Below are positions 42,301 to 56,217 of a stretch of 60,505 bases of DNA, piece by piece. Position 1 is the stretch's first letter. Each line of letters starts with the position of its first letter. The stretch is from assembly GCA_035457005.1 (NCBI GenBank), contig DATICB010000017.1, positions 1-60,505 of the forward strand. The letters run 5' to 3'. The DNA comes from Patescibacteria group bacterium (lineage in GTDB: Bacteria > Patescibacteriota > Microgenomatia > Levybacterales > UBA12049). The position numbers were made by a program, and so were the translations under genes. The notes under the pieces were generated by a model. That model was not told the DNA's origin. It saw only the letters and a program-made list of their open reading frames with translations, and searched no databases.

Positions 42301-45300
42301 AAAAAATCCAGTTGCGGTAATGTCATCGCTAGTTGCATCGCCAAGATTTACTTTTCCATTCAAAGTTGTTGTTCCTGTCACTGTCAGTGCATTATTCACT
42401 GTTGTCGTGCCGCTTGTTCCGCCTATGTTTACATTTGTTGTCAAGGCATTATTAGCGAGATTAAGTGTTGTTGCAGCAGACCCAAAGTTAATGGTTGTTG
42501 CTGTGGTATTGAGAAGATTGACACTTGTCTGATTGGTTGCAATGGTTGCTGCATTTAAATTGATAGTTGATCCTGTGCCACCGTTGAGCGCAGTAAGTGT
42601 AATATTTCCTGTTTGACTGTCACCGATGGTAAGCCCTTGATTATTTCGTGTTGCGATAACATTTGCCGTATCGCCGTTGAACGTCAGTGTTCCGGTTGTT
42701 GTCGCATTGCCAGTATTGGCAAACACCTGGAATTTAGCAGATGCTGTACCAGTGCCACCAATTGCCAAATCATTCCAGTTATTCGTTGGATACAAGACAT
42801 TACTTGCTAAGGTCCAGTAGCCACCAACACCGCCTGTTGCAGGAAGATAGACATTACTTGCTGTGACTGCGCCAGTCAGGTAAAGATTTTTCCAAGACAG
42901 CGCAACTGAGCCAAGGTCATCTGTATTGGTTATGCTTGGTATGATATCGGTGCTGACACGGCCAGTAAAACCAATCGTATTGCCTGTACCGCTTCCCAAG
43001 ACGACATTGCCCCTAATGGTATTTGTTCCTGCTGCATTACCAATACCAATGCCGCCTGTTGCACCAGATCCGATATTGATATTAGTTGCGTTAGAATCAA
43101 AAAGACTTGCTGTACCGGCAGTTGTTGTGATATTGCCACCATTCACAGCAACATTTCCTGAGGTAGTAAAATTGCCTGTTTGGGTTATGTCGCCGTTGTT
43201 AGCAATAGAGAGTACAGTTCCAAGACCAGAATCTCCTCCAACAGATGTTTTGACATTTAAGACGCTGCCGTTGAGTAATGCAACCTGCGTTGTGGTTCCT
43301 CTGAAAGAAAGTCCCGCAGAAGAGGTTGCCGTTCCTGCGGTGTTGACGCCAAGTGTTGTTGCAAATACTTGCCATGGTGTTGCAGACCCTGTTGCATTGC
43401 CACCAACTGCCAAATCATTCCATGCATTCACAGGAGACAATACATTGTTAGTCAGCTGCCAGAATCCTGAGACGCCTCCTGAAACAGGGGAGATGAAAGT
43501 GTTTGCATAGACTGTGCCATAGTAGTGAGTTGCAGAGCCAAGATTGATTGATCCATTGCCTGTTGGAACAAGATCGGTTGCCAAAGACCCAGTGGTTGTA
43601 ATCGTGTTGGTTGAGCTTGTTCCCAAAGTGACATCACCTTTCAAATTAATTGGTGTATTCGATGCGCCAATATTCAATGCTGTGGTTGCACCTGCGCCAA
43701 AGTTAATTGTTGTTGCTGTGCTGTTTAATAAATTAAAAGTGGTCTGATTGGTTGAGAATGTGCCGCCATTGTCTGCGATATTGCCTGTGGTAGTGAGTGC
43801 ATTGTTGACAGTTGTTGTTCCAGAGCTATTGCCAATATTTAAGCTCGTTGCTGTTGGGAAGGCAGTAAAGGATGTTCCACTGCTGTCGAGCGTTGTTCCA
43901 TTTATTGTGACTATGCCGTTGCCATTTTGTGGTTTTAAGGTAATATTGCCTGTTGTGTCGCCACCAATGGTAAGGCCTGCGTTTCGTGCTGTTTGGAGTG
44001 AGCCTGTGGCTGTTAGGTAGGTGGCATTGCCATTTAACCCGGAGCTTACCGATGCAACTGGTGTTCCGGATCCTGTCATATTGAGTACTGCAAATTTTGC
44101 AGAAGTAGTTGCCGAGCCACCAATGAAGAAATCAAACGTTTCATTGATTGGGTAGAGCGCGCCATTTGTCATAGTCCACCAATTACTTGCTGCAGAAGAG
44201 CAATCACTCCAGCTTGGTGCAGATGATGCATTAGAAATAAGACATTGGCCACCTGACCCAACAGATGTGAATGCGTATCGTGTTCCATTTGAGTAGGCGA
44301 CACTTCCCGCAGAGCCTAATGTTGTTGCATTGGTGCCGCCATTAGCAATTGGCAAGATAGAACTACCAACATCTGCTGTTAAATCAATTGCGTTAAATGT
44401 TGGTGCGCCTGCACCGTTGCCGCGAAGGAAAGTATGTGCTGCGCCTTGTGCTGTTTCGGCAACAGTGCCATTGGTATCAGATAAGTACAAAATACCATCT
44501 GCTGTGGTATATTTCTTAGCGATAAGTGTGCCATCATTTTGAATGGTAAATTTGGTGACACCTGACGCCGATGCAGTAAAGATGTCGCCGTTGGGTCCTT
44601 GCTTATTGACGACCAGTGCCGAATTTCCGCCTGCGTTTGGCTGCACAGTAATATTCCCTAAACCGCTATTTTGTCCAAGAATAATATTACCTGTTCCAGA
44701 AGACAAAAGCGTCAGGTCTGCATTGCTGGTAGTCTGAATTGTTGAGGAAGAACCGTTGCCAAGCGTTACGGTCGTGCCGTTCACTGTGAAATTTCCTCCG
44801 GTTGTTGTTAGTCCTGTTCCCGTTGTAAAGCTTGATGCACCGGCAAAGGTAACGCTGCTTCCTGAGATTCCATTCAGCGGACTCAGCGTTATATTTCCTG
44901 TGGTTGTTCCACCAATGGTTAATCCCTGGTTTCTTGTGGTCTGAATAAGACTGCCTGTACCATCAAACGTCAGTGTTCCTGCTGTTGTTGCATTGCCAGT
45001 ATTTCCAAACACCTGGAATTTAGCACTACTTGTTGCTGTCCCGCCAATTGCCAGATCATCAGCAATATTACTTGGAGAGATTATTCCTGAATTCCTCTGC
45101 CAGAAACCGTCATACTGTGCTGTTGCACTTAAAATAAGCCCATTTGCGTAGACATTTCTCCAGGCGAGCGCATTCGAACCAAGATCATATAGATTATTTG
45201 CATCAGGACCGACACTGCCTGCAAGTTGCAGTCTAAATGATCCTGGATTAGTTGTGCCAATGCCAACATTATTGCCGTTAAGAATAATGTTGCCGGTTTG

Positions 45301-48300
45301 ATTATCACCAAGAGTCAGCCCTTGATTATTCCTTGCAGCAATAAGGTTGGTTGCTGCAGTACCGCTGGTAAACGTCAGTGTTCCTGCTGTTGTTGCATTA
45401 CCAGAATTGGCGAAAATTTGAAATTTAGCGCTACCGGTTGCTGTGCCACCAATTGCGACATCGTCGGTTATATTGAGCGGTGCCAAAACACCTAAATTTC
45501 TCTGCCATGTTTGTGTAATTGGCTGTCCATTCTGGTAAATATTATTCGCATAAATATTATTCCACTGAAGAGCTGCCGAGCCTAAGTCATAGGTATTGGT
45601 TGTGTAGGGGAGAATATTGGACGAAACATTGCTGTTAAAACTAATATTGCCTGTAGTGTTGCCGCCCAATGTAAGCGTTTCATTTCTCACTGTCTGAATC
45701 GTTCCGTCTGCTGCAAAATACATGCCAGTGCCATTCAATCCTGATGATACCGATGCAGTTGGTGTGCCATTAGCGATATTGAGTACTGCAAATTTAGCAG
45801 ATGTTGTACTGGTTGCTCCTACTAATACATCGTTTGTTATATTTGTTGGAGATAATGCGCCATTGTTTAACTGCCAGAATCCAAGATACTGTGAAGAAGC
45901 CGAGCCAAAGAGATTGGTAATATAGGCACTACCATAGTAATTGGCTGGAGATCCTAAATTAATACTTGTTGATTGGGGAATAAGACTTCCTGAGAAAACG
46001 CCAACTGGGTTAATGGTATTGGCGCTCGTTGCTCCCAAAACTGCATTGTTGTTGGCAGTGAAAACACCTGTTGCTGTGAGTGCGTTATTCACTGTTGTCG
46101 TGCCGCTTGTTCCGCCTATGTTTACATTTGTTGTCAAGGCATTATTAGCGAGATTGAGTGTTGTTGCTGCACTGCCAAAGTTAATTGTTGTTGCTGTGGT
46201 ATTGAGTAAATTGACACTTGTCTGATTGGTTGCCAGTGTTGCTGCATTTAAATTGATAGTTGATCCTGTGCCACCGTTTAAGGGTTGGAGCGTTATATTT
46301 CCGGTCGTATTTCCACCAATGGTGAGTCCTTGATTTCTCACTGTCTGAATTGTTCCGTCTGCTGCAAAATACATGCCAGTTCCGCTTAATCCTGAAGAAA
46401 CAGATGCTGTTGGATTTCCAGAGCCAGTCATGTTGAGGACAGCAAATTTAGCAGTTGTTGTTGCGGTGCCGCCAGCTAAGATGTCGTCAGTAATATTAGC
46501 AGGGGAGAGTGTGCCAAGATTTCTTTGCCAGAATCCTGCAGTATTGCCGGATGTAATAATGTTTTTGACATACAAATTATTCCACTCCAAACTTGCAGAG
46601 CCTAAATTATAAGTGTCAGCATCTGCGGGAATAAGATCGGAGTTGATAAATCCACTGACCGTGAGCGATCCTGTCCCATTGTTTGGTTTTAAGATAATAC
46701 CACCTGTCGTGTCTCCACCAAGAGTAAGTGGTTGGTTGCTCGTTGTTTGGATTTGAGACCCTGTTCCGGTAAACGTCAGTGTTCCGGCAGTTGTTGCATT
46801 GCCAGTATTCCCAAAGACTTGGAATTTAGCACTATTGGTAGACGTTCCGCCAATTGCAAAATCATTTGTTATATTTGTTGGGCTTAAGACGCCGCTGTTT
46901 AATTGCCAGAATCCATCATACTGTGCATTCGGACCTAAAAGAAGACCATTTGCATAGATATTTCTCCAGCGAAGTGGTGTTGTTCCATCTCCCAAATCAA
47001 AAGTATTATCAGTTGTTGGGACAAGACTGCTACCAAATCTTCCTGTTGTGACAATAGTATCAGCCGTTGCATTACCCAAATTAACATCTCCATTAAGATT
47101 TGTTGTATTATTTGCTGTGAAAATACCTGTTGCTGTGAGTGCGCTATTCACTGTTGTTGTGCCACCAGTCACGCCAAATCCTAATGTTGTCGCATTGGCG
47201 GTAAATGCATTAAATGTTGATGCAGTTGTTTGAAGAGCAGAACCATTCACAGTAACTGTTCCATTACCACTGTTTGGACTTAAAGTAATACCACCTGTCG
47301 TGTCTCCACCAAGAGTAAGTGGTTGGTTACTCGTTGTTTGGATTTGAGACCCTGTTCCGGTAAAGGTTAAATTGCCAGCAGTTGTTGCGTTACCAGAATT
47401 GGCGAAGACCTGGAATTTCGCAGTTGCTGTTGCTGTCCCGCCAATTGCTAAATCGTCTGCAATATTCGCAGGGGAGACAACGCCGAGATTCCTCTGCCAG
47501 AATCCAACCGTGGTTCCTGTTGAGATAACATTTTTTACATAGATGTTGTTCCACTCCAAACTTGCAGAGCCAAGATCATACGTATCTGTTGTTCGTGGGC
47601 CAACATTGCCTGCCACTTCGAGAGCAAAATCGCTCGTTGTTGTTGTGCCAATGCCAACATTTCCTGTTGAATCAACATAGAGTCCTGTTGTTCCTTTCGG
47701 TGATAATTGAACTGATCCTGTTGTTGCAGAGCCTATGGTGAGCGGGCGATTGTTGGTGGTTGCAATGACGCCATTACTATTCAGTGTTATATTCCCAGAA
47801 ATGGATGCAGTTGGTGTGCCAGACCCTGGAGCATTATTTAAGAACGAAAAATTAGCAGAAGAACTACTCGTACCGCCAAACAAAACATCTAATGTTGTAT
47901 TAACAGGATAGAGAATTCCATTCCCACTATCCAATGTCCAATAATTTGTTGCACCGGCAGCGGTTGAACAACTTGTCCAGCTTGGCGCACCAGATCCTGC
48001 AGAGACAAGACATTGATTTGTCGAGCCTACCGCCGTGAATGCATAATTGGTGCCGTTGGAATAGGCAACACTTCCGGCTAACCCAATGGTGTTGGTGTTC
48101 GTACCGCCATTGGCAATTGGCAAGATGCCAGTAACTTCTGAAGCTAGGTTGACACTGCTTGATGATAAAACGCCTCCTGTTGCGTGGACAACGCCTGTCC
48201 CAAGGCCACCAATAGTGACTGTTCCTGCTCCATTGAGTGGGTTCAATGTGATGTTTCCTGTTGTAGTTCCGCCAATTGTCAGTCCTTGATTTTTCGTTGT

Positions 48301-51300
48301 CTGAATAAGACTGCCTGTACCATCAAACGTCAGTGTTCCTGCTGTTGTCGCATTCCCAGTATTTCCAAACACCTGGAATTTGGCAGTACTGGTAGACGTC
48401 CCGCCAATTGCTAAATCATCGGTAATATTACTTGGAGAAATGATTCCGGAATTTCTCTGCCAGAATCCTGAAATAGTACCTCCGGAAATAATGTTGTTAA
48501 CATATAAATTATTCCACTGCAAACTTGCAGAACCCAAATCATACGTATTGGTTACTTGGGGAATGAGGTTAGAGTTAATATGGCCATTAACAGTAATATA
48601 TCCGTTGCCATTAAGTGGACTCAAGGTAATGTTGCCAGTACTGCTGCCACCGATCGTGAGGCCTTGGTTATTGGTTGTTTGAATCTGACCGACACTATTC
48701 AGCGTTATATTTCCAGAAATGGATGCTGTTGGTGTCCCAGATCCTGGCGCATTGTTAAGAAACGAAAAATTAGCAGACGAGCTACTTGTACCGCCAAACA
48801 AAACATCCAATGTGGTATTCACGGGGTAGAGACTCCCGTTGGCAAGTGTCCAGTAATTAGTGACGCCTGCTGCTGTAGAACAACTACTCCATGTTGGTGA
48901 TCCTGCCGCGCCTGAAAGAAGACATTGTCCTGCTGTTCCTACCGCAGTGAATGCATAGTTGGTGCCGTTGGAATACGCAACACTTCCAGCAGAGCCGATG
49001 CTTCCAGTATTGGTTCCGCCATTAGCAATTGGTAAAATACCAGTGATCTCGCTGGTTAGGCTAACATTAGAGGAGGAAAGCAGACCTCCTGTTGAGTGAA
49101 CAACACCTGTACCAAGTCCAGCAATCGTGACAGTCCCTGTGCCGTTAAGTGGTTTTAAGACAATATTTCCAGTCGTGTCGCCACCAATAGTCAGACCCTG
49201 ATTGTTGGTTGTCTGAATAAGTCCTGCGCTGTTGAGTGTAATATTTCCGGAAATAGATGCAGTTGGTGTACCTGCCGCATTATTCAAGAAAGCAAATTTA
49301 GCAGATGAAGATGAGTCACCGCCAAATAAGACATCGAGTGTTGTATTGATTGGGTAGAGGGTGCCATTCGCAAGTGTCCAAAAATTAGTTCCCGAAGCGC
49401 CGCTGCCACAACTGCCCCAAGTAGGTGTTCCACCGCCTGCAGACGTAAGACACTGCCCGGCAGAGCCTGCTGCTGTTTGGAAGAAAAGTCCAGTCCCATC
49501 TGCATAGAAGATTCCGCCTGCGGTGTTGTAGTTGGATGCAGTAATTGTGCCAGTATTACCCAGCGTGAATTTGCTTACGCCGGCTGCAGATGCAGTGAAT
49601 AATGCTCCTGCGCCGTCTTGATTAATGGTGACTGCAGGAATACCAGAATTAGTAGCCAGGACAGCAAAGGTGTCATCAACCTCAACAGAGCCTGTCGCTG
49701 ATGAAATATTATTATTTTGTGTTGAATTGATGAGCGGCTTTTGCAAGTCAATAAATCCTTGGCCGTCGGGCGCGATTGTTATGTTGCCATTGGTCCCTGC
49801 GTTTGTATTTAAGACAAGCGTATCGCCGCTCAAGGTGAATGCACCACCAACTGTTTGGAATGTGCTCGCTGCGCCAATAGACAAATTGCCAGCGGAGTTA
49901 AGCGCCAAAACAACATTGCTTGTTCCTGCGCCGGATTGGGTAATCGGGGGCAAGCCTTGAAGCGTTTCCGCATTAGTCGCGTAGGCAACGGTTGCCAGCT
50001 GCTGTCTTGGTGTTAGCTCTGGAGTCTGAGCAACGGTAATGCCTAAGAAAAGATTGGCATTATTAGCAAAAAGAGACTGTTGAATTGCACTTCCTTGTCC
50101 CAATAACACTGAAAAAACACCATTGGCATCAGGAGTAACATTATCGACCTCTTGCCACAAAAGAGCTGAACCGGTTGCTGTAGCGTTGGTGTAAATACCA
50201 AAACGTAAATTGGTCGAGGTTGTTATTGGATTGCTGCTACTATCTGTCAGCCTGCCTTGGAAGGAAAGAATCCTGTTTGGTTGTGCTGCTGCTAGAATAT
50301 GCTGACCATTTTGTGGGCGTGATGCAAAATTGTTGTAAAACCCAAATCCAATGACTGTCATGACAATCATGAGGATTGCCCAGTTAAAATAATGCGCAAT
50401 TGCATAACTATGATATCTTTTGTACCAGTTGGGTCGTGTATATCGTGCATGATGAATAAGTGTTTCAAGCCATGGCAACTGATTCAGTATTCTTTGTGCT
50501 GGAGCGAAAACTGACTTTGAAATATTTTTCACAGGCATAAATTGCGCAAGCCTCTTCTGCTCGTCTGTCAGCTTGTTGGTGAAAAGAGGCTTACCCCTGA
50601 GTGTCCAGATTGCTTTATGACCATGAACAACTAAGTGGGTGAGTGGAGTTATGAAAACACTGTCAAATACAAAATTGATTCCTTTTGATATCTTTTGAGC
50701 AAGTCTAAAAGGAGGAAAAGGAGAATAAGTGTGAGATTTTGTGGGTAGCGCAGTGGGTTTTGCTACACCTTCTCCATCGTCGGTAGTTAGGACATGGTCT
50801 TTTTGTTGTCTCTCTGGCGATTCAAAAGTGTTAGTGCTAGGAATATTTGTAACATCAATTGGATTGACGGGAAGACCTTTTTGATTTTGCAAAAGATTTT
50901 GACTATTTGCCCAGGCAACGTACTTACGGAGTGAGGAGAGCTTGCGGTTAATTGATGAGTTGGAAAAAGCATGTTCAGCCACAAGTGCATCTCTGTAACT
51001 TGCAAGCAGGGCATTGTCCAAGCTCTCTAAAACAGTTGCTTCTGGATTCTGTTGTTGCACCGAAGACTGTGCCCATTTAAAAAATTGTTTCAAGTCAATG
51101 ATATAGTTTTTGATAGTTAGATTGCTTGCGTTATAGACATAAAGAAAATCTTTGAATTGTTTGAGCTGGTATGGATCTTCTATATGCTGGCTAGATGTCA
51201 CCTGATCAAGTGGACTCGCGCTTACGTAGCCTTGTAATTTAAGGAAATGAAAGAATTTTCTCAAGGAAGAGACATGCCTATCAAGCGATCTTTCTGAGAG

Positions 51301-51495
51301 TTGTTGATTTTTTTCTTGTCTAAAAAGGGCGATGTGCTCTGAGGAAATACTTTTAGGATCAAACGATGTCTGGTATTTCTCTTCAAACCACACGATGAAG
51401 TGTTTCACGTCCAGGCTGTAGTTTTTCACAGTCACTTTCGATGGAGCTGGTTTGAGCGAAAATAAATAATTTTTAAATTTGATTAAATATTCCAT
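36337..51495 (-). CDS. giant (5,052 aa) membrane-anchored, tail-fibre-like surface protein
   Basis: Uninterrupted 15,159-nt ORF. The domain order was read from the translation and is given in the sub-features below. Confidence 0.9.
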   Translation of the reverse strand: MEYLIKFKNYLFSLKPAPSKVTVKNYSLDVKHFIVWFEEKYQTSFDPKSISSEHIALFRQEKNQQLSERSLDRHVSSLRKFFHFLKLQGYVSASPLDQVTSSQHIEDPYQLKQFKDFLYVYNASNLTIKNYIIDLKQFFKWAQSSVQQQNPEATVLESLDNALLASYRDALVAEHAFSNSSINRKLSSLRKYVAWANSQNLLQNQKGLPVNPIDVTNIPSTNTFESPERQQKDHVLTTDDGEGVAKPTALPTKSHTYSPFPPFRLAQKISKGINFVFDSVFITPLTHLVVHGHKAIWTLRGKPLFTNKLTDEQKRLAQFMPVKNISKSVFAPAQRILNQLPWLETLIHHARYTRPNWYKRYHSYAIAHYFNWAILMIVMTVIGFGFYNNFASRPQNGQHILAAAQPNRILSFQGRLTDSSSNPITTSTNLRFGIYTNATATGSALLWQEVDNVTPDANGVFSVLLGQGSAIQQSLFANNANLFLGITVAQTPELTPRQQLATVAYATNAETLQGLPPITQSGAGTSNVVLALNSAGNLSIGAASTFQTVGGAFTLSGDTLVLNTNAGTNGNITIAPDGQGFIDLQKPLINSTQNNNISSATGSVEVDDTFAVLATNSGIPAVTINQDGAGALFTASAAGVSKFTLGNTGTITASNYNTAGGIFYADGTGLFFQTAAGSAGQCLTSAGGGTPTWGSCGSGASGTNFWTLANGTLYPINTTLDVLFGGDSSSSAKFAFLNNAAGTPTASISGNITLNSAGLIQTTNNQGLTIGGDTTGNIVLKPLNGTGTVTIAGLGTGVVHSTGGLLSSSNVSLTSEITGILPIANGGTNTGSIGSAGSVAYSNGTNYAFTAVGTAGQCLLSGAAGSPTWSSCSTAAGVTNYWTLANGSLYPVNTTLDVLFGGTSSSSANFSFLNNAPGSGTPTASISGNITLNSVGQIQTTNNQGLTIGGSSTGNITLSPLNGNGYITVNGHINSNLIPQVTNTYDLGSASLQWNNLYVNNIISGGTISGFWQRNSGIISPSNITDDLAIGGTSTSTAKFQVFGNTGNATTAGTLTFDGTGSLIQTTKNQGLTIGGTTTGNITLNPLNGAGTVTIGGLGTGVVHATGGVLSSSSVNLASEVTGILPIANGGTNTNTIGLAGSVAYSNGTNYAFTAVGSTNQCLVSAGSGAPSWTSCSTAAGATNYWTLDSGNGILYPVNTTLDVLFGGTSSSSANFSFLNNAPGSGTPTASISGNITLNSNGVIATTNNRPLTIGSATTGSVQLSPKGTTGLYVDSTGNVGIGTTTTSDFALEVAGNVGPRTTDTYDLGSASLEWNNIYVKNVISTGTTVGFWQRNLGVVSPANIADDLAIGGTATATAKFQVFANSGNATTAGNLTFTGTGSQIQTTSNQPLTLGGDTTGGITLSPNSGNGTVTVNGSALQTTASTFNAFTANATTLGFGVTGGTTTVNSALTATGIFTANNTTNLNGDVNLGNATADTIVTTGRFGSSLVPTTDNTFDLGDGTTPLRWRNIYANGLLLGPNAQYDGFWQLNSGVLSPTNITNDFAIGGTSTNSAKFQVFGNTGNATTAGTLTFTGTGSQIQTTSNQPLTLGGDTTGGIILKPNNGTGSLTVSGFINSDLIPADADTYNLGSASLEWNNLYVKNIITSGNTAGFWQRNLGTLSPANITDDILAGGTATTTAKFAVLNMTGSGNPTASVSSGLSGTGMYFAADGTIQTVRNQGLTIGGNTTGNITLQPLNGGTGSTINLNAATLATNQTSVNLLNTTATTINFGSAATTLNLANNALTTNVNIGGTSGTTTVNNALTATGVFTANNNAVLGATSANTINPVGVFSGSLIPQSTSINLGSPANYYGSAYITNLFGSASSQYLGFWQLNNGALSPTNITNDVLVGATSTTSAKFAVLNIANGTPTASVSSGLNGTGMYFAADGTIQTVRNETLTLGGNTTGNISFNSNVSSNILPYTTNTYDLGSAALQWNNIYANNIYQNGQPITQTWQRNLGVLAPLNITDDVAIGGTATGSAKFQIFANSGNATTAGTLTFTSGTAATNLIAARNNQGLTLGDNQTGNIILNGNNVGIGTTNPGSFRLQLAGSVGPDANNLYDLGSNALAWRNVYANGLILSATAQYDGFWQRNSGIISPSNIADDLAIGGTATSSAKFQVFGNTGNATTAGTLTFDGTGSLIQTTRNQGLTIGGTTTGNITLSPLNGISGSSVTFAGASSFTTGTGLTTTGGNFTVNGTTVTLGNGSSSTIQTTSNADLTLLSSGTGNIILGQNSGLGNITVQPNAGGNSALVVNKQGPNGDIFTASASGVTKFTIQNDGTLIAKKYTTADGILYLSDTNGTVAETAQGAAHTFLRGNGAGAPTFNAIDLTADVGSSILPIANGGTNATTLGSAGSVAYSNGTRYAFTSVGSGGQCLISNASSAPSWSDCSSAASNWWTMTNGALYPINETFDFFIGGSATTSAKFAVLNMTGSGTPVASVSSGLNGNATYLTATGSLQTARNAGLTIGGDTTGNITLKPQNGNGIVTINGTTLDSSGTSFTAFPTATSLNIGNSSGTTTVNNALTTTGNIADNGGTFSTNQTTFNLLNSTATTINFGAGATTALNIGASNTPINLKGDVTLGTSSTNTITTTGSLATDLVPTGNGSINLGSATHYYGTVYANTFISPVSGGVSGFWQLTNNVLSPVNAWNDLAVGGNATGSATPWQVFATTLGVNTAGTATSSAGLSFRGTTTQVALLNGSVLNVKTSVGGDSGLGTVLSIANNGDITQTGNFTTSGNVAVNGGNITTTAGTASLFDSNATNINIGSGATGGIGIGNAAGTNTIRGNVVLGSGTGNTIGFTGRVSTDIIPSITNTDDLGSVALSWKNLYLTGAVTASNVYLPATGGVGGYWTLASNVLYPTNNWNDLAIGGTGTASAKFQVFANTGNATTTGTLTFNGDTANVIATRNNQGLTIGDSQTGNITLTALNGGTGSTINLNAATIATNQTSVNLLNTTATTINFGSAATTLNLANNALTTNVNIGGTSGTTTVNNALTVTGTTTLNGKVNLGDATSDDITATGFFASSLIPKTNDTYNLGSDPTAGGQEWDTLYVRQIVTPSSGGIAGFWQLSSLGVLAPANLTNDLAVGGLATSSAKFQIFGSGTYAGTATTSGNLSFTAANTKVDLLNNATLGFYNSVGGNSGEGNPALYIASSGNIGIGTNSPQEQLQVLGESSSYTYIGSPNCGGGYSGISFGTNNLTCNNYSLLGDGTYTFLNAPSGGQIKFGINNNYFATGDASAFTISATGLHVTGSGPHYFSNGNVGIGTTSPLGPLDIEKDGLGNSALIVNQQNNVADILTASASGATELQLTNSGILRARSFQDLDNTNYFIDPAASGQAMDINGSAGIGTTSAQYKLDVYGDLRVGKDATNWGVDGYSYRRQISINNTYGQQLINYQVRVVMDTTGLVSSGKVLSSCNDVRFTDSDGSTNLNYWIEPNSCNTTATTFWVKVPLIPGPNKMMYMYYGNAGASAASSSTSTFVREISGVQGAWRFDEPTYMPMNDFSGNGNNVASESGTTVATGIFGNARTFDGNSDYVEINDSSNLRITQPLSVAIWFKKSSNPSSKETLIRKDTQIGTRTLFGLNFLTSGKVEAEYFNNPTDYIVDSTATTYADGNWHYAVMTISGTTMTLYVDGASTGTPATITVGSAPTGVLDIGAAPPYNAGARAGFFTGTLDEPRVYNIALSSSQITDLYSNGGQNYGYTIASNANTEEARAYVSTEPTIASLGQEQNTVTQMLPSFYVQQTTGNVALGTTSVASTSALLTVAGDIKSGLYDPTSWIASSYGESYRARITVDNTQSASSSANADYQVKVSINTTAPISVGKMRNDCTGVRFTDSDGTTNLNYWMEPGTCNTSSTIFWVKVPQLPPGEKKNIYIYYGNLSLSTSVSSAANTFVRSISGLQAAYSMDITSGTTESDTSGNGNTGTLSNGIIANGMFNNGVYFDGVGDSISIANSSSINFSNAMSADLWVKPGAVQPTSADIFSKHNINTSGGYMLESTGTGNTYFFGWSDGASYRCNTIGAGTDKWSNGGIILTPDVWQHVTVTKSGTSAIAYVNGVQVSTCTGGSSTIGSSSSQSLKIGQSAGSNAHFFRGYIDEVHFYDAALSAAEVTDLANPTGTPHNGYATTNSANTIYVRSFTNPEPVVSVDTEQDPSQVDPTLYVNNTFGRVGIGTANPTSTLDIVSNQAANNSLSALNIDTVNDGVFLTTWKRAGTSLGAIFANNNGPLVIEAFPNATLGTTGNISLNPGGGNVGIGTTTPNATLDVNSGNIRVGHSSAGGIIIMDGTPGGGHQYEWYNDAAGTSGQLGLYDRTYGNYDVIWGATGQMTVTSGITGGNFALVVHNDAVSNSGDGIRIQAGANTSDTAFFLQYLDGDGTSLGTVQGNGGGVTYTNTSDIRLKTDIAPTNMGLDQLLQIPVVNFHYKTEPTGPLQTGFIAQWLYNVFPNAVSVPTNPDDRYGDVNPQDPWGVDYGRITPLIVKAVQDLNTKVDVATTSANSQLAMLSGKLTNLDLSGTGDIIMNQNATVSADFTIPHYYMLSDIFGNPIHQIAALSEAVIGNLRVGSLQAQQTITNSLSIATANVTIAGQSLSDYIIGVVQTAISNGSLSQFNNGTVNSPIASIDQLHTGIVSPLGQDNSIALSLGNSRIEVRNGASGSAVATIDNIGNATFSGTLTSQNLAVNGDATVSGTLHANRIEANTIAGLQAVVSTLSAQNITNVTNIYFATPSGAPTGENIATGLGGSSSTNSGLLNPYLGYTNLASYSGFLAYVPNLDATTGMFEQGLMSLGTTTLSDTTITGQLAIGSQLILADNGVNVLGATFDIQPLRQGGVNFEGGLLAIDTDGNLTVNGNAVFSKTLAANIISPISNDRNLTVKLGNNPTATGAALATSNLSVQNASGSGIFTIDQLGNVIASGAATIGKLNLQVAEPALAVSNTELVATGSAGTADVKAHQTEITIDNKLVTSKSLIYITPVGQSTITPYLIRQVDKTSFTVGIPLQQTTNTTFNWLIVN
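37905..38195 (-). other. peptidase S74-type intramolecular chaperone (auto-cleaving) domain, internal
   Basis: TNTSDIRLKTDIAPTNMGLDQLLQIPVVNFHYK..GFIAQWLYNVFPNAV..VDYGRITPLIVKAVQDLNTKV. The conserved Ser is residue 4436 (codon 38188-38190). Confidence 0.7.
39030..41255 (-). other. two consecutive DUF2341-like + LamG (concanavalin-like) cassettes
   Basis: Cassette 1: YRRQISINN..VRFTDSDGSTNLNYWIEP..FWVKVP..YMYYGN, followed by FDGNSDYVEI..GNWHYAVMT..LYVDG..LDEPRVYN. The second copy is YRARITVDN..YIYYGN followed by a LamG region. Confidence 0.65.
41500..50200 (-). repeat. at least 14 tandem tail-fibre-like modules
   Basis: The recurring unit is DLGSxxLxWxNxY .. GFWQ(R/L)N..SPxNIxDDLAIGGT..AKFQVFxNxGNATTAGTLTF. 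LPIANGGTN and vGIGTtxP..LxV motifs are interspersed. Confidence 0.8.
50329..50406 (-). other. single clear transmembrane helix (aa 364-389)
   Basis: YAIAHYFNWAILMIVMTVIGFGFYNN. Confidence 0.75.
50887..51495 (-). other. two tandem tyrosine-recombinase-type N-terminal SAM-like/core-binding domains (aa ~3-95 and ~108-203)
   Basis: Domain 1: FKNYLFSL..VTVKNYSLDVKHFIVWF..SERSLDRHVSSLRKFFHFLKLQGY. Domain 2: LKQFKDFLYV..LTIKNYIIDLKQFFKWA..SINRKLSSLRKYVAWA. No catalytic R-H-R-Y domain follows. Confidence 0.6.
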
Positions 51496-51679
51496 AAGGC
51501 AGTTTTGGAAAGAATTATAATGTGTGAAAAATTTATTTCATGACTTTTCTCTGTTTTAGCCTCGAGATTATACAGATTATACGGATTATCATGTGTCTCG
51601 TACTACTACTATTTAGCGTAGAAAGTATACACGTGGTTGTCAATAACCTGGAGTAAAGACAAAAATAAAAAATCGAATC

Positions 51680-51701
51680 TGTGAAAATAACAATTTTCAC
51701 A
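51680..51701. promoter_or_regulatory. perfect 9-bp inverted repeat TGTGAAAAT-N4-ATTTTCACA, a candidate operator
   Basis: Read directly from the sequence. Related TGTGAAAA half-sites occur at 51523, 51817 (reverse) and 51838. It lies between the divergent giant gene and the 52094 gene. Confidence 0.4.
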
Positions 51702-52093
51702 TGTGGAAAAGAAATAAAAAACCGAACAAAAGAAGAATACTAGTCTCGATAGATTTACAATTTTTAGATAAATCTATATCAATAAATATCATGTTTCTCA
51801 GTAAGTCCTGTAATATGATTTTTCACAGCAGGCAGCAGTGAAAAGTAAAATTTCATTTATTTTCGTATTTTAAGACAGGTTTTACTTCTTTTCGTATTGT
51901 TTCTAGCCACGAGTTCAGCAACCAAAAATTAGCAGTCCGAATAGGGAAGCGATACGTTTTTACATGTGGTGATTTGGATTGATTTGATAAGGAAAACAAA
52001 AATTATTGTGCCAAAAGGGGCTTAAAAGATAGAGAATAGCCAAAATTCCTCGTTGCGCTGTTATTTTTACTGGCTTACACTTACATTGTAGAC

Positions 52094-52978
52094 ATGAAAA
52101 AAATATTTCCTCTTGTACTCTTATGCATGCTTGCATTTTTTGTAAAAGTCCCTGTTGCGTTTGGTGCTGTTGCAACGCAGAGTGGAACAACCAATATTAC
52201 CGTAACGATCTCTGGTAACGTGTTGTCGCTTTCTGGCTACATTGCACCATTTGCCTCGATTGTCCTCACGGTTAATGGAAATGTGATTACTTCAACCACG
52301 GCAGATGCGGCGGGCAATTTCTCTTTTAGCAATGTAGCCGTGCCCAAAGCAACGAGTACGGTATGTTTGGATGCTGTTGATTTTAAAAAGCTTGGTACAT
52401 CCAAAGCATGTATTAGTGTGATACCTATTGATGGGGTCATTACGAAAACAGGAATTTTTCTTCCGCCAACACTTGGTGTTCAGCGAACCGATGTCTTTGT
52501 TGGGGACAGCGCTTTAGCATTTGGCTATGGCATGCCTGGAGCAACAATTACTGTTCACGTCAATAGCAGCAAAGGATGCACTGTTACAGCAGAATCTACA
52601 GGCTACTACACATGCAATATTACCATTCAAAAAGTGGGATCGTACGAATTGTATGCTGATGCAGTCTTGAATAACAAGCCAACAGAGCAGCAGCTTTACA
52701 AAATTCTCATAAAAGGTATTACGGTCTCTAAGCCTTCAATTACGCCTGGACCAACTGTATCACCGTTGCCTGAGCTTAATCTTTTTGCAATTCCATGGTG
52801 GGTGTGGTTATTGCTTGTCCTGATAAGCATTATCCTTATTATTATTCTTCTTCGAAAATTCAAACCTGAGGCTCTGCCAACTATTGGTGTTCCGGCATTT
52901 AAAATTAATCATGCATTTGATTTCTTATTTAAGTCTCGAAAATTGCACCATTGGTGGATGAAAGGTGTAGGGTATTAG
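52094..52978 (+). CDS. secreted Ig-like-domain protein with a C-terminal membrane anchor
   Basis: Signal peptide MKKIFPLVLLCMLAFFVKVPVAFG. Two beta-sandwich-like repeats (TADAAGNFSFSNV and TAESTGYYTCNITI). TM helix WWVWLLLVLISIILIIILL. Confidence 0.7.
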   Translation: MKKIFPLVLLCMLAFFVKVPVAFGAVATQSGTTNITVTISGNVLSLSGYIAPFASIVLTVNGNVITSTTADAAGNFSFSNVAVPKATSTVCLDAVDFKKLGTSKACISVIPIDGVITKTGIFLPPTLGVQRTDVFVGDSALAFGYGMPGATITVHVNSSKGCTVTAESTGYYTCNITIQKVGSYELYADAVLNNKPTEQQLYKILIKGITVSKPSITPGPTVSPLPELNLFAIPWWVWLLLVLISIILIIILLRKFKPEALPTIGVPAFKINHAFDFLFKSRKLHHWWMKGVGY

Positions 52979-53715: not shown

Positions 53716-54732
53716 TTACAAATGAGTCATTTTATGCCTGACTCGCTCAATCACAATCAAAAGAATTACAACAGCCAGGAAAAACCCAAGCAAGTATTCC
53801 CACGGCATAACAAAAAAGTAAATTGTTTTTGTGAAAAGTGGTCCTTCTGGAGAAAGCGAAACAATAATATTTGCGCGGTATGGTCCGAAAAGCACATTTT
53901 TATTCCACAAAGCAACAGGATGATTGTTATCAACCGCATTTTCTTTACTGGTGAGAAAACGAGTTGAGTTGCCTAAAACATTCACAGAGAGTAAATCAAC
54001 CTTCCCAACAAGTTGGCCAAACATATTTCGGATAAGAATCTGGCCTGTTGGTGTTATAAAATGACGACTTGTGTTAGTGATTGATACAGTAAAAGGAATA
54101 GGAGCTGTCTGGGCAAACCATGGCGTTGTGAATTCATTCAAAAGTCCTGTTGTTTCATCTTTTGGTGCGATAGAAAGAAGAATATTTGCAGCAATGCCTG
54201 CGGTAATGTGGCTGCCGTTGGCATCTTGATTTACAGAATCAGTTGAAACAAACAAAACAGAGAAGTAATAATCTGCTCCAGGCTCGTCTTTAGGGAGGCC
54301 AATACGAAGCGTGAGTGTTTTCTTCTGCTTAGGAGCTAAGCTGAGGCTACTAATGGGAGTATCGCCATCCAGGATTTGTACTTTTTGAAAAATATCCTTG
54401 TCTGGTAGCATTTTTGTGCCCACAGGAAGGTATAGCACTTGACCATTGTTAGTGCCACTTGCAGTAAATGGCCTCAAAGTTACTGAAACATTTTCCGTAT
54501 CTTGACTTGCATTCACGACGGTGATGTCTTTTGATATAATCGTTGGCGCTGTTGCTTGAATTTGAAGAATGGGTGGATATACACCCAAGGCGAAATCAGC
54601 TGCGAAAGCATTCGCAGGAAATAATCCAATACACAAATAACCCAATAAACCAATCAATAAAGAAAATAAAAAATAGTGCGTATTTAGTGTTTTGTATTTA
54701 GTATTTTGTATTTGATCAATGGTATTTGTCAT
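53716..54732 (-). CDS. cell-surface protein resembling DUF916+DUF3324 proteins of WxL loci
   Basis: N-terminal anchor/signal, two beta-rich domains (GADYYFSVLFVS..GIAANILLSI and FTVSITNTSRHF..GPYRANIIVS), and a C-terminal TM helix. Confidence 0.6.
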   Translation of the reverse strand: MTNTIDQIQNTKYKTLNTHYFLFSLLIGLLGYLCIGLFPANAFAADFALGVYPPILQIQATAPTIISKDITVVNASQDTENVSVTLRPFTASGTNNGQVLYLPVGTKMLPDKDIFQKVQILDGDTPISSLSLAPKQKKTLTLRIGLPKDEPGADYYFSVLFVSTDSVNQDANGSHITAGIAANILLSIAPKDETTGLLNEFTTPWFAQTAPIPFTVSITNTSRHFITPTGQILIRNMFGQLVGKVDLLSVNVLGNSTRFLTSKENAVDNNHPVALWNKNVLFGPYRANIIVSLSPEGPLFTKTIYFFVMPWEYLLGFFLAVVILLIVIERVRHKMTHL

Positions 54733-54755
54733 TGGTATATTGGGTTATTCATCTC

Positions 54756-55526
54756 CTAGAAATTTGGACTAGCCACGTACGTAATAGTGTTTGTATACAC
54801 GCCAGGGAGCTGAGAGCCTGATACGTTGACTTTGTAGGTAACTTGCGACTGCTTCTCTAGAGAAGAGCCAGATGTGTTCTGCATGACAACCTGAGGGGAT
54901 TGAGACAATGCTGCATTTGCAAACGGCTTGTATGTATTTGCAGTAAAGGTAGAGCAATCAGTTTGTGCCACGTTATCGCAGCGATAGCCAAATCCATAGG
55001 TGAGATTGCTAACCCAATTTGCAGCAAACGATGGCGTACACAAGCCGCTGTCACAGGTTGTATCAGGAATTAAAGAGCCAGATGGTGATTGAAGACTATG
55101 GTTTTCTATACCTGTCACAGAATATCCTGATGCAGTGCTTAATACATCGAGTATGTTTGTTCTACTTACTGGACTTGTTGGATCAACTGTTCCAAAATTT
55201 AAATCTGTTGGTGTTACAGTAAAAGTAAAAATTCCAGAAACAACGGATTTATTACAAAATATGCCTCCATAAAATCCTGCGCAGATAGTGTAATTTGTCC
55301 CGGTATACAGACCTGCGCCCAATTCGCCAGATGTAAAGGTAAGTGTTTTTCCGCTGCCAGATGATTGTCCTGCAATGCTATTCAGATTGCCCAGAATAAT
55401 AATATAAAAAGCATTGGACATGGTAAAAGCGTTTGCGCTTTTACCAAATAAACCAATAGACAAATAAACCAATAATCCAATCAATATAAAAAAGAAAGCA
55501 TACTTGGACAGAAGTATATTTTTCAT
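54756..55526 (-). CDS. secreted beta-rich protein, possibly WxL-like
   Basis: N-terminal signal/anchor homologous to that of the neighbouring gene (LIGLLVYLSIGLF versus LIGLLGYLCIGLF). Also FTFTVTPTDLNFG, and the C-terminus GVYTNTITYVASPNF. Confidence 0.55.
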   Translation of the reverse strand: MKNILLSKYAFFFILIGLLVYLSIGLFGKSANAFTMSNAFYIIILGNLNSIAGQSSGSGKTLTFTSGELGAGLYTGTNYTICAGFYGGIFCNKSVVSGIFTFTVTPTDLNFGTVDPTSPVSRTNILDVLSTASGYSVTGIENHSLQSPSGSLIPDTTCDSGLCTPSFAANWVSNLTYGFGYRCDNVAQTDCSTFTANTYKPFANAALSQSPQVVMQNTSGSSLEKQSQVTYKVNVSGSQLPGVYTNTITYVASPNF

Positions 55527-55578
55527 GAAATTACTTTTTGTTACAAGATTGATTCGTAGTATTCATTATGCATCATGG

Positions 55579-56217
55579 TTATTGTTTTGTTTCGCTTCGC
55601 AGATCTTCTGTTTCTTCTAAAATCTCATTCAATTTCTCAACATCGTCAGATTTAAGATTCTTTTTTTCGTTTTGCAACACTTTTTCTATATCTTTTGCAA
55701 TAGTTGTGCCTGCTTCTTCGGATCTTTCTGCCAGAGAAACTATTTCATCTGCCTGCTTTTCACGATCTCTGTATTCTTTGCCAAAAAAATAGGGAAGAGG
55801 AGAAATAAGAAGAAAAGAGCCAAGCTGAATGTATTGTCCCAGGCTGCCGCCATTGGTCAGGACTGCTGGCAAGAAAATAATGACTGTTCCAATTGCAAAA
55901 ATAAATACTGTGACAGGCTCAAAAATAAAAGTAATGCCAAAACCTAAAAAGTACAACAAAAAGAAAAACCAGCTTGCCATTTGTCCTGTTGCAAAAATAA
56001 GAAGGAAAATTGCTGTATTAAGCGTAAAAACATCGGGTATGCCACCCCAAATAGCATCTTCTTTTTTCATTTTTCGTTTTACAAATTGGGCGACAAGATA
56101 CACAATAACCATGACTGCCAAAACTTGCACAGTAAAATCAGTAAATGGACTTTGCTCCCAAGCAAAAACAAGGGTAAAGGAAAAAATCAGCACGAATGCG
56201 TGAAGAAGTGCTTTCAT
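55579..56217 (-). CDS. polytopic membrane protein with an acidic coiled-coil tail
   Basis: 212 aa with 5 TM helices. The C-terminus contains EKQADEIVSLAERSEEAGTTIAKDIEKVLQNEKK. Confidence 0.7.
   Translation of the reverse strand: MKALLHAFVLIFSFTLVFAWEQSPFTDFTVQVLAVMVIVYLVAQFVKRKMKKEDAIWGGIPDVFTLNTAIFLLIFATGQMASWFFFLLYFLGFGITFIFEPVTVFIFAIGTVIIFLPAVLTNGGSLGQYIQLGSFLLISPLPYFFGKEYRDREKQADEIVSLAERSEEAGTTIAKDIEKVLQNEKKNLKSDDVEKLNEILEETEDLRSETKQ

Follow-up and report, generated by a model that had tools for sequence, protein, structure and literature searches.

Tandem recombinase-type core-binding domains without a catalytic domain at the predicted cytoplasmic end of a giant surface fibre in Levybacteria-type CPR bacteria

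Described systems related to the locus

The N-terminal core-binding (CB, SAM-like) domain of XerC/XerD-type tyrosine recombinases (Pfam PF02899, Phage_int_SAM_1) is a four-helix bundle that reads about 5 bp in the major groove. In the XerH-difH complex, this bundle makes most of the base-specific contacts and reads the inner 5 bp of each arm (PMC5241119). CB domains also make protomer-protomer contacts in recombinase tetramers, and isolated CB domains generally bind DNA weakly. Membrane-tethered one-component regulators of the ToxR, CadC and TcpP type carry an N-terminal cytoplasmic DNA-binding domain with an OmpR-type winged-helix fold, one transmembrane (TM) helix and a small extracytoplasmic sensor domain, and bind direct repeats near promoters. 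The eukaryotic factor MyRF (myelin regulatory factor), which was noted to contain an S74 domain (PMC10769870), combines an N-terminal DNA-binding domain, a TM helix and a trimerising, self-cleaving Peptidase_S74 intramolecular-chaperone domain; because its S74 domain lies between the DNA-binding domain and the TM helix on the cytoplasmic side, cleavage releases the factor. Finally, the mosaic adhesive trimer (MAT) fibres of Bdellovibrio and phage S74 tail fibres or spikes have a beta-rich base domain right after the membrane-targeting signal, a long Gly/Thr/Asn/Ser-rich fibre, lectin-like tip modules and an S74 domain, and an SDxxxK motif defines the S74 group of the MAT fibres (PMC10769870).

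Here we analyzed a 60,505-nucleotide stretch of DNA (the window; contig DATICB010000017.1 of assembly GCA_035457005.1) from an uncultured Levybacteria-type bacterium, in which a single gene combines parts of these systems (Table 1). A first-pass annotation, made from the sequence alone, had noted two recombinase CB domains without an R-H-R-Y catalytic domain, followed by a single membrane crossing and about 4,600 extracellular residues of an adhesin-like fibre. Our analysis confirmed this observation, and the coordinates and sequence motifs that it gave were correct.

Table 1. Features of the fibre gene and its upstream region (positions in the window).
Position	Strand	Residues	Feature
36337-51495	-	1-5,052	Whole gene: single-pass membrane protein (CB-CB, linker, basic region, TM, giant fibre)
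51196-51495	-	1-100	CB1, first core-binding domain; modelled helices 2-13, 20-41, 52-63 and 68-87
50881-51186	-	104-205	CB2, second core-binding domain
50731-50880	-	206-255	Flexible linker
50407-50730	-	256-363	Conserved basic juxtamembrane region; motifs YSxFPPxRLxQK, NIxKxxYAP and RYTRPxWYKxYHSY
50323-50406	-	364-391	Single predicted TM helix (signal anchor)
50026-50271	-	~409-490	First extracellular beta-sandwich (fibre base); motif LSFQGRLTD...LLWQEV...PD.NG.FS
38029-38190	-	4436-4489	Peptidase_S74 domain; catalytic motif S4436-D-I-R-L-K4441
51556-51591	-		Cis element, sense strand TGATAATCC GTATAATCT GTATAATCT CGAGGCTAA: three tandem 9-bp units plus a tail, about 60-95 nt upstream of the ATG
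51615-51654	-		Conserved promoter: ACTCCAGG (51647-51654), TTGACA (51638-51643), 17-nt spacer, TACGCT (51615-51620); -35 and -10 assignments inferred
51680-51701			Palindrome TGTGAAAA-N6-TTTTCACA, one of several TTTTCAC boxes flanking promoter and array

Domain content, predicted fold and predicted topology

To determine whether the N-terminal repeats are CB domains, we searched the protein against Pfam and NCBIfam profiles. Phage_int_SAM_1 matched in two stretches with a total of 74.4 bits (cut-off 22.3) and, when the repeats were scanned separately, CB1 gave 44.9 bits (E 1.4e-11, HMM positions 3-83 of 83) and CB2 gave 42.9 bits (E 6.3e-11, HMM positions 1-82 of 83), each about twice the gathering score. 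The best NCBIfam matches were XerC and XerD, but the XerC, XerD and XerA models matched only over their N-terminal ~95 positions; XerC and XerD aligned at positions ~4-97 of ~295 and scored 81 and 69 bits against cut-offs of 335 and 330. No Phage_integrase or other catalytic-domain hit was found anywhere in the 5,052 residues at E <= 1. The protein is therefore not a recombinase, no recombination is possible, and the name "site-specific integrase" under which relatives appear in public records is a misnomer. Both repeats carry the CB signatures T-x-x-[NA]-Y-x-x-D-[LV]-x-x-F on helix B and S-x-x-R-x-[LV]-S-[SA]-[LV]-R-x-[FY] on helix D, and the family has its own invariant K-N before the Tyr and N-R-K on helix D. 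CB2 is 29% identical to CB1 (E 3e-9), consistent with an internal duplication.

We next examined the predicted fold. A single-sequence search of the PDB with residues 1-212 found nothing, and only a family profile reached XerA and a XerC-like chain; the latter (9i5v, labelled "RaiA") is a full XerC-like ORF fused to RaiA in Porphyromonas, of which only 34 RaiA residues were modelled, and is irrelevant to function here. A fold search with a 500-residue multi-domain model was diluted by the beta-sandwich and was, therefore, repeated with a model of the tandem alone. The AlphaFold2 model of residues 1-205 has a mean pLDDT of 92.7 (~95 in CB1) and shows two four-helix units. Its top ~26 Foldseek hits in the PDB were all recombinase CB domains at probability 0.96-1.00, with a probability of 1.00 to lambda Int, XerD, XerA, IntI and Brujita Int, and with TM-scores of 0.72 (3nrw) and 0.74 (2oxo) and rmsd of 2.0-2.8 Å against these isolated-domain entries. 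The Foldseek E-values were weak (0.1-1), as is usual for small helical domains.

To assess topology, we used hydrophobicity and the positive-inside rule. Only one Kyte-Doolittle peak above 1.6 was found in the whole protein, at residues ~364-391, and the structure model shows a helix at 365-391. Its estimated insertion energy is about -2 to +3 kcal/mol in intact homologues, with 12-21 K/R on its N-terminal side against 1-3 in the 20 residues after it, so the CB pair is predicted to be cytoplasmic. A second TM helix at residues ~272-290, which would place the CB pair outside, was rejected because this hydrophobic helix has an unfavourable insertion energy (+2 to +18 kcal/mol) and basic flanks on both sides; these energies, on the Hessa scale, are approximate. 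The layout is that of ToxR-like regulators (predicted N-in DNA-binding-type domain, one TM helix, extracytoplasmic part), although the fold is a recombinase CB bundle rather than a winged helix and the outside part is a structural fibre of about 4,660 residues. The linker has pLDDT < 50, only 13% pairwise identity and a length of 27 to 70 residues among homologues. The juxtamembrane region has no Pfam match, but has a pI > 10 and a net charge of +9 to +19 in nearly all homologues (+8 in one).

The extracellular part carries Laminin_G/ConA-like, DUF2341 and Peptidase_S74 domains and, like MAT and S74 fibres, has a long Gly/Thr/Asn/Ser-rich fibre and lectin-like tip modules. The base beta-sandwich is modelled at pLDDT ~90 and has 54% pairwise identity; the NCBIfam model Bdello_MAT_N gave only a weak hit to it (29.8 bits against a cut-off of 60), and its homologues elsewhere directly follow ordinary signal peptides. 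MAT fibres start with a cleavable signal peptide and have no cytoplasmic part, whereas here the N-terminus is hydrophilic and the signal peptide is replaced by 363 cytoplasmic residues plus a signal anchor. The S74 domain (Pfam E 2.7e-12) carries the SDxxxK motif, but about 617 residues follow its cleavage site, far more than a usual chaperone module. Thus, the "adhesin" of the first-pass annotation is a tail-fibre/MAT-like self-processing fibre.

Conservation of the architecture was then examined. It recurs in at least 209 species genomes of Levy-, Roizman- and Shapirobacteria. The CB module was paired with a TM helix and a long extracellular region in 80 of 80 loci examined, and in the 150 best database representatives the module always starts near residue 1. 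The CB domains are under purifying selection, with 43-50% pairwise identity (mean 49.5% for CB2) against 13% in the adjacent linker. Residues K24, N25, Y26, D29, F33, S70, R73, S76 and F81 of CB1 and T127, K129, N130, Y131, D134, F138, W141, N183, R184, K185, L186, S187 and S188 of CB2 are invariant. CB1 has a pI of ~9.5 across the family, both domains are basic in nearly all homologues, and the whole cytoplasmic part has a net charge of +16 in the window protein.

We also considered whether the fusion might be a chimeric assembly, a mis-called start, or a functionless remnant of an integrase gene fused by accident to a prophage tail-fibre gene. In favor of this, public records annotate relatives as "site-specific integrase, partial", the tail-fibre-like and S74 domains are of phage type, and some relatives look split into two genes. 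However, the gene is one uninterrupted ORF starting at the ATG at 51495, in-frame stops lie just upstream, M1 is invariant in homologues, and no alternative start removes the domains. Apparently short homologues on long contigs, which looked like stand-alone CB-TM proteins of 415 and 677 residues, are frameshifted in long-read assemblies, and the conserved fibre motif continues in another frame. The same continuous architecture occurs in more than 100 independent assemblies from three candidate classes, and the context is chromosomal (leuS, rho, adk, tRNAs). This explanation is, therefore, effectively refuted. Altogether, the conditions that would have overturned the first-pass annotation (no significant CB similarity, an N-terminus outside the cell, or a start that removes these residues) did not hold.

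A conserved sequence array at the promoter of the fibre gene

In addition, we found a cis element that could not be seen in the first-pass annotation. It consists of two or three tandem 9-bp units (ATAA...GTATAATCNGTATAATYT) at about +18 to +50 of a conserved TTGACA promoter, with flanking TTTTCAC boxes. The element is unique in the window, with 0.02 expected by chance, and it was present once, on the same strand, upstream of the gene in 78 of 83 sources. In 111 distinct loci, the TATAAT columns and the G before the last unit are 98-100% conserved. An exact-pattern scan of GTDB genomes gave 111 new hits, of which 76 have the CB gene 25-630 nt downstream. Pattern hits in other phyla (Pyrinomonadaceae, Flavobacterium and others) are conserved coding sequence or chance, and lack the promoter and tail. 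Thus, the element is found essentially only at this gene, in every lineage.

The position of the element is fixed relative to the promoter but not to the start codon: TTGAC lies upstream of the array in 111 of 111 loci, with a median gap of 57 nt (IQR 54-64), while the distance to the start codon ranges over 1 kb, and in Roizman- and Shapirobacteria the array lies inside the first codons. This indicates a DNA-level, transcription-proximal role. ACTCTAGG-N3-TTGACA occurs 51 times in 1.3 Mb, and 48 of these are at this promoter; the -10 of the window is too weak to be picked up by a generic promoter scan. TTTTCAC peaks 140-160 nt upstream of the array in 68 of 107 loci and again at +20 to +140, about 34-fold above a background of 0.47 per kb, which implies that some other factor also acts at this promoter.

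To test whether the array acts as RNA or peptide, we searched Rfam, which gave no match at E <= 1, and ran RNAalifold on 60 anchored sequences, which predicted no pairs (energy 0.0). A translated leader peptide or uORF ("YNxYN") was rejected for Levybacteria, because an in-frame ATG is present in only 37 of 111 loci, the frame is fused to the main ORF in 8 of 111, and TAT/AAT show no synonymous variation; the array is translated in Roizman- and Shapirobacteria, where the start codon lies upstream of it. An invertible promoter was also rejected, since no flanking inverted repeats of note were found.

The array core is exactly the sigma-70 -10 consensus (TATAAT) on the non-template strand of the initially transcribed region. 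Sigma-70-dependent promoter-proximal pause elements, for example at lambda PR', and ops-type leader signals of long operons are comparable in that -10-like hexamers lie in the initially transcribed region of a very long transcription unit. However, this array is tandem with a strict 9-bp period, extends beyond the hexamer (G-TATAAT-C-N, with a YTNGNNGCT tail), and lies somewhat further downstream than classical pause elements. Sigma-dependent pausing, or simply extra promoters, would explain its extreme conservation without any role for the CB domains.

Possible roles of the CB pair

The first-pass annotation had suggested that the CB module links surface contact to the nucleoid or to incoming DNA, or serves as a protein-interaction scaffold. 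This interpretation was partly supported: its structural claims hold, but our data neither prove nor exclude the functional ideas. Our preferred hypothesis, which remains tentative, is that the N-terminus is a functional, Xer-derived tandem DNA-reading head that has lost the recombinase catalytic domain and is tied by its ~50-residue flexible linker to a strongly basic, membrane-hugging base and the single TM anchor of a trimeric, tail-fibre/MAT-like surface fibre. In this view, each bundle would read about 5 bp in the major groove, the two would bind adjacent direct repeats, and their likeliest target would be the array at the gene's own promoter. As the CB pair is the first part of the 15-kb gene to be translated, it could act in cis, even co-translationally, to throttle or tether its own transcription unit, giving autogenous control of a very costly fibre and holding the locus at the fibre base. 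The analysis established the identity and modelled fold of the domains, the absence of a catalytic domain, the N-in topology by sequence rules, purifying selection on the CB domains, conservation of the architecture, and the existence, exclusivity and promoter-relative position of the array, while we only infer that the domains bind DNA at all, that the array is their site, and that regulation results.

Consistent with this hypothesis, the invariant polar and basic residues sit on helices B and D (K24-N25-Y26, S70/R73/S76/R79/K80, K129-N130-Y131, N183-R184-K185, R190), the helices that enter the major groove in recombinases, and the unit GTATAA resembles GCATAA, the conserved inner dif half-site read by Xer proteins. 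However, array and CB module co-occur in all family members, so that this association cannot be separated from one between array and fibre. We looked for a fibre that lacks CB domains but keeps the array, and found no CB-less fibre paralogue among the Microgenomatia loci examined; CB-less fibre bases exist only in other lineages. Furthermore, Roizmanbacteria keep two perfect repeats but only about one good CB domain, and there is no clean correlation between the numbers of repeats and domains.

An alternative, which we consider somewhat less likely, is that the CB fold was co-opted as a cytoplasmic docking or oligomerisation platform, which might organise the trimeric fibre base, recruit assembly or Pam-pilus factors, or resist pull-out of a single-helix anchor. 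The array would then be read by sigma factor, as a pause site or as auxiliary -10 elements for a 15-kb gene, or by another regulator. The sigma-like array core, the TTTTCAC boxes, the repeat and domain numbers in Roizmanbacteria, the protomer contacts of CB domains, and the location of the gene in a conserved surface-structure cluster with Pam-pilin-like genes and a TPR protein are in line with this. On the other hand, the residues kept invariant are the polar and basic ones on the DNA-facing helices B and D rather than a new hydrophobic patch, both domains stay basic, an unconstrained tether suits reaching for a ligand more than a rigid base plate, and no partner protein is evident.

A non-specific nucleic-acid tether, essentially the suggestion of the first-pass annotation, appears unlikely. 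The CB pair and the basic juxtamembrane region would bind DNA or RNA without sequence preference, coupling the fibre base mechanically to the nucleoid in a very small cell or handing over DNA taken up from a host. The basic cytoplasmic part, the DNA-binding type of fold and the flexible tether fit this, and CPR cells are tiny and depend on host-derived nucleotides. However, invariant Asn, Lys, Arg and Ser at fixed helix positions in two diverged repeats suggest a defined ligand rather than bulk electrostatics, no competence or DNA-uptake genes are among the conserved neighbours, and the cis elements are not explained.

Finally, fibre engagement or tension might trigger juxtamembrane or intramembrane cleavage that frees the CB pair to act on DNA, as with MyRF, Notch, or regulated proteolysis of anti-sigma factors. 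The N-in layout with lectin-like extracellular domains, the disordered linker and the presence of an S74 domain, as in MyRF, would fit, but this reading is very unlikely: the S74 domain is extracellular, near the far end of the fibre and about 4,000 residues from the membrane, so its cleavage cannot release the head, no protease site or site-2-protease partner was seen, and the linker sequence is not conserved. The DNA-binding fold also differs from that of MyRF. A bolder reading, also unlikely but not excluded, is that the fibre (1,300 to 6,000 residues) is a direct outside-to-DNA signalling device, in which the heads hold the operator array, and possibly other sites, against the membrane, and host contact, tension or fibre processing changes that occupancy. 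An episymbiotic CPR cell would then convert surface attachment into a transcriptional or chromosome-positioning response with no second messenger, which would be a bacterial counterpart of MyRF/Notch-type signalling built from an exapted Xer CB domain.

As far as the searchable literature shows, no prior description exists, and this would be the first described case of the tyrosine-recombinase CB domain used without its enzyme, and of a DNA-binding-type module at the cytoplasmic end of a bacterial surface fibre. The gene also comes with a very conserved, gene-private promoter architecture (the TATAA 9-bp array, the ACTCTAGG box and the TTTTCAC boxes). Hundreds of these genes are labelled "site-specific integrase" in public databases, which will mislead searches for mobile elements in CPR genomes. 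The family is nearly universal in Levybacteria, extends to Roizman- and Shapirobacteria, and lies beside the recently described CPR Pam-pilus operon, so it probably matters for how these uncultured episymbionts attach to hosts.

Core-binding domains and predicted topology of the fibre N-terminus

To determine whether the N-terminal residues belong to the giant fibre protein, we examined its open reading frame, which encodes 5,052 aa without interruption. In-frame stop codons lie immediately upstream of the initiating ATG, and the initiator Met was found to be invariant in an alignment of 28 homologues; therefore, the N-terminal residues are part of the protein. Pfam Phage_int_SAM_1 matched the first 205 residues in two stretches (74.4 bits against a cut-off of 22.3), and when the two halves were scanned separately, aa 1-100 gave E 1.4e-11 and aa 104-205 gave E 6.3e-11, with each match covering essentially the whole 83-position model. 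The NCBIfam XerC, XerD and XerA models aligned only through their N-terminal ~95 positions and scored far below their whole-protein cut-offs, and no catalytic (Phage_integrase) domain was detected anywhere in the protein at E <= 1. An AlphaFold2 model of aa 1-205, built on 37 family sequences, had a mean pLDDT of 92.7 and showed two four-helix units. Its top ~26 Foldseek matches in the PDB were all recombinase core-binding (CB) domains, namely those of lambda Int, XerD, XerA, IntI, Brujita Int, Cre, Tn1549 Int and XerH, with probabilities of 0.96-1.00 and, against isolated-domain entries, TM-scores of 0.72-0.74 and rmsd of 2.0-2.8 A, although the Foldseek E-values themselves were weak (0.1-1). 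The two repeats are 29% identical to each other (E 3e-9), consistent with an internal duplication. The first-pass annotation, which described two such domains without a catalytic domain at the cytoplasmic end of a surface fibre, was thus correct in every detail that could be checked, and its observation is confirmed.

The best PDB sequence match to the family profile was chain 14 of entry 9i5v, a 401-aa Porphyromonas gingivalis chain that was deposited as 'RaiA' and whose N-terminal part is XerC-like. The corresponding paper models only 34 residues of the hibernation-factor part and does not comment on the recombinase-like part.

We next examined the topology of the protein. It has no N-terminal signal peptide and contains a single strongly hydrophobic segment, at aa ~364-391. 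Many homologues have a second, weaker hydrophobic stretch at aa ~272-290, which would place the CB pair outside the cell if it were a real TM helix. However, this is probably not the case: its estimated insertion energy is +2 to +18 kcal/mol, against about -2 to +3 kcal/mol for the true TM helix in intact homologues (these values are approximate), it contains a conserved Asp and Pro, and both of its flanks are basic, with 12-21 Lys/Arg in the loop between the two segments against 1-3 in the 20 residues after the TM helix. With one membrane crossing, the two ends of the protein lie on opposite sides. The C-terminal 4,660 residues carry Laminin_G/ConA-like, DUF2341 and Peptidase_S74 domains, and their base domain directly follows an ordinary signal peptide in other bacteria. 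The N-terminal 363 residues are therefore inferred, from sequence rules alone, to be cytoplasmic.

A model of 500 aa, together with the alignment, defined the layout of the cytoplasmic part. CB1 (aa 2-101, pLDDT ~94) and CB2 (aa 111-198, pLDDT ~88) are followed by a disordered linker (aa 206-253) that is unconstrained both in sequence (13% pairwise identity) and in length (27-70 aa). Next comes a conserved, very basic juxtamembrane region (aa 256-363), with a pI above 10 and a net charge of +9 to +19 in nearly all homologues, which has three family-specific motifs (YSxFPPxRLxQK, NIxKxxYAP and RYTRPxWYKxYHSY) and no Pfam match. The TM helix is followed by a confidently modelled beta-sandwich (aa 409-490) that weakly matches the N-terminal domain of Bdellovibrio MAT fibres. 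CB1 and CB2 are as conserved as the TM helix and the fibre base (43.5% and 49.5% pairwise identity), and both are basic in nearly all homologues. Their invariant residues are mostly polar or basic and sit on helix B (K24-N25-Y26...D29...F33; K129-N130-Y131...D134...F138) and helix D (S70, R73, S76, R79, K80; N183-R184-K185-L-S-S-L-R190). By helical periodicity, S70/R73/S77/K80 form one polar stripe, which is inferred to face a ligand.

Distribution of the family and its genomic context

A profile scan of GTDB species genomes found at least 209 genomes with a relative. All informative labels were Levybacteria or Patescibacteria, and we take the 'uncultured Gammaproteobacteria' labels of some third-party assemblies to be placeholders. 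In all 80 loci retrieved, the module is followed by a TM helix at aa ~350-460 and a long ORF; complete ORFs run 1,270-3,710 aa, and several run off a 10-kb flank. Among 1.84 billion representative proteins, 179 clusters were found at E <= 1e-30, in which the module always starts at about residue 1 and lengths are mostly 1,300-1,700 aa, with a tail to 6,048 aa. Two apparent stand-alone CB-TM proteins on long contigs proved to be frameshifts in long-read assemblies, one of them a 1.14-Mb Levybacteria chromosome; single frameshifts split the fibre gene in both assemblies, and these are probably assembly indels rather than pseudogenes. Weaker members occur in Shapirobacteria (two CB domains) and Roizmanbacteria (one good CB domain plus a degenerate one). 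Together with the invariant start, this recurrence effectively excludes the explanation that the fusion is an artefact or a relic. Public records name these fibre N-termini 'site-specific integrase, partial' or 'site-specific recombinase XerD'. Because the catalytic domain is absent, this is a systematic mis-annotation, and it could inflate counts of mobile elements in CPR genomes.

The genomic context is chromosomal, with leuS, rho, adk and tRNA-Ala genes. The three tRNA-Ala genes have anticodons TGC, CGC and GGC, and the CGC and GGC genes are directly abutting, with no spacer. The fibre gene lies within a conserved surface-structure cluster. Three small surface-protein genes lie upstream on the same strand in 38, 38 and 24 of 40 loci; one weakly matches NCBIfam CPR_Pam_pilin_C ('CPR Pam pilus pilin'; 39 bits against 55), and one is like the PG-binding domain of the WxL-interacting protein. 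A divergent CarboxypepD_reg/Big_6 protein and a downstream 689-aa TPR protein complete the cluster, with synteny in 23-38 of 40 loci, except for the divergent gene (16 of 40). A 2026 preprint on the CPR Pam pilus notes that 'a tail fibre-like protein' consistently co-localises with the pam operon, but does not mention any integrase- or recombinase-like domain.

The fibre has an S74 domain with the catalytic SDxxxK motif (S4436...K4441, here SDIRLK), as in the S74 group of Bdellovibrio MAT fibres (PMC10769870), and is therefore most likely a self-processing trimer. This domain is not at the C-terminus: about 617 fibre-like residues follow the predicted self-cleavage site, far more than in a usual intramolecular chaperone module. 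A large C-terminal piece may therefore be shed, or may act as the chaperone.

Coordinates of the fibre gene, its upstream elements and neighbouring features (window positions unless a locus is named; L001 and L002 are the loci from the two long-read assemblies)
Feature	Position	Strand	Remark
Fibre ORF	36337-51495	-	5,052 aa; ATG at 51495
S74 domain and following residues	36337-38190	-	aa 4436-5052
Tandem 9-bp array	51556-51591	-	about +18 to +50 of the promoter
Palindrome of TTTTCAC/GTGAAAA boxes	51680-51701		TGTGAAAA-N6-TTTTCACA
Further copies of the TTTTCAC/GTGAAAA boxes	51523-51532; 51818-51828; 51838-51844		
Surface-structure cluster around the fibre gene	53716-56217 and 52094-52978; 34025-36094	- and +; -	three small upstream genes, divergent gene, downstream TPR gene
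tRNA-Ala genes	15566-15643 and 32996-33145		CGC and GGC genes abut at 33071/33072
Frameshift in L001	about 11931-12034		position in the locus
Frameshift in L002	about 11164-11248		position in the locus

A private tandem array upstream of the fibre gene

Comparison of the upstream regions showed that the non-coding DNA is far better conserved than the proteins. The consensus, ATAA...GTATAATcNGTATAATyTnGnnGCTa, consists of two to three tandem 9-bp units; three units occur in 78 loci, two in 31 and four in 2. The TATAAT columns, and the G before the last unit, are 98-100% conserved across 111 distinct loci, and the array is almost invariant across at least 111 loci whose proteins are only 30-60% identical; it is a finding in its own right. 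It occurs nowhere else in the 60.5 kb of the window (0.02 expected by chance) and is present once, on the sense strand, upstream of the gene in 78 of 83 sources. An exact-pattern scan of all GTDB genomes gave 111 new loci, of which 76 have the CB gene 25-630 nt downstream; the others are edge-truncated, or are unrelated coding or chance matches in other phyla.

To assess the position of the array, we measured its distance to the promoter and to the coding sequence. A TTGAC(A) box precedes it in 111 of 111 loci at a tight distance (median 57 nt, IQR 54-64), whereas the distance to the coding sequence ranges over more than 1 kb. The promoter-relative position listed in the table assumes a 17-nt spacer and a TAYNCT -10 element. 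In five Roizmanbacteria-type loci and one Shapirobacteria locus, the start codon lies upstream of the array, so that the same nucleotides are translated in frame at the very N-terminus as M-x-x-x-Y-N-x-Y-N-[FL]-E. In Levybacteria, however, only 37 of 111 loci have an in-frame ATG and 8 are fused to the main ORF, and TAT/AAT never vary synonymously, indicating that the constraint is on the nucleic acid. We found no Rfam match, no conserved RNA structure and no flanking inverted repeats.

Two other private motifs were found at this promoter. ACTCTAGG-N3-TTGACA occurs 51 times in 1.3 Mb, with 48 of those at this promoter. In addition, TTTTCAC boxes, often as a GTGAAAA...TTTTCAC palindrome, flank the promoter and array; they peak about 140-160 nt upstream of the array in 68 of 107 loci and again just downstream, about 34-fold over background, and would be bound by an as yet unidentified factor.

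The array core is exactly the sigma-70 -10 hexamer on the non-template strand of the early transcribed region. It could therefore be a sigma-dependent pause or auxiliary promoter signal for a giant gene, with the CB pair serving as a protein-interaction or anchoring platform. We regard this main rival as doubtful, somewhat below the reading that we favor, but the two could not be separated because array, CB module and fibre always co-occur in the Microgenomatia loci examined, and CB-less fibre bases were found only in other lineages.

Candidate roles of the paired core-binding domains

We tentatively propose, short of even odds, that the CB pair is a cytoplasmic, membrane-tethered DNA-reading head, and that its likeliest target is the tandem 9-bp array at its own promoter. 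Major-groove reading is the established job of this fold; in XerH-difH, the N-terminal four-helix bundle makes most of the base-specific contacts and reads the inner 5 bp of each arm (PMC5241119). The residues under strongest selection are the polar and basic ones on those helices, two domains joined head to tail fit two adjacent direct repeats, and the array is exclusive to this gene and is positioned like an operator. Moreover, the unit GTATAA is one base away from the conserved inner dif half-site GCATAA. In this view, the CB pair, being the first part of a 15-kb gene to be made, could act in cis on its own transcription unit, which would limit initiation (autogenous control of a very costly product) and hold the locus at the fibre base. 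Our analysis establishes that the domains are real, conserved and, by sequence rules, cytoplasmic, and that the array exists and is private; every further step, including DNA binding itself, the array as the site and the regulatory outcome, is inference.

The interpretation offered in the first-pass annotation is partly supported: its structural claims hold, whereas its speculative ideas, that the domains might link the fibre to the nucleoid or to incoming DNA or might serve as a protein scaffold, are neither proved nor excluded. Non-specific nucleoid or DNA tethering, as it suggested, appears unlikely but possible, and release-type signalling as in MyRF seems more unlikely still, although it also is not excluded.

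The domains are members of the PF02899 domain family, but the protein is not a tyrosine recombinase, because the defining catalytic domain was tested for and is absent. In its inferred function it most resembles membrane-tethered DNA-binding proteins such as ToxR and CadC. In architecture it resembles MyRF (DNA-binding head, TM helix, phage-type S74 domain), but with a different domain order and a different DNA-binding fold. The extracellular part is a MAT/tail-fibre-like S74 fibre whose signal peptide has been replaced by a 363-residue cytoplasmic module plus a signal anchor. Full-text searches found no prior description of this combination. Altogether, it is a conserved and surprising exaptation of a recombinase domain, which comes with a concrete, cheaply testable ligand hypothesis and relates to how uncultured CPR episymbionts organise their surface fibres.
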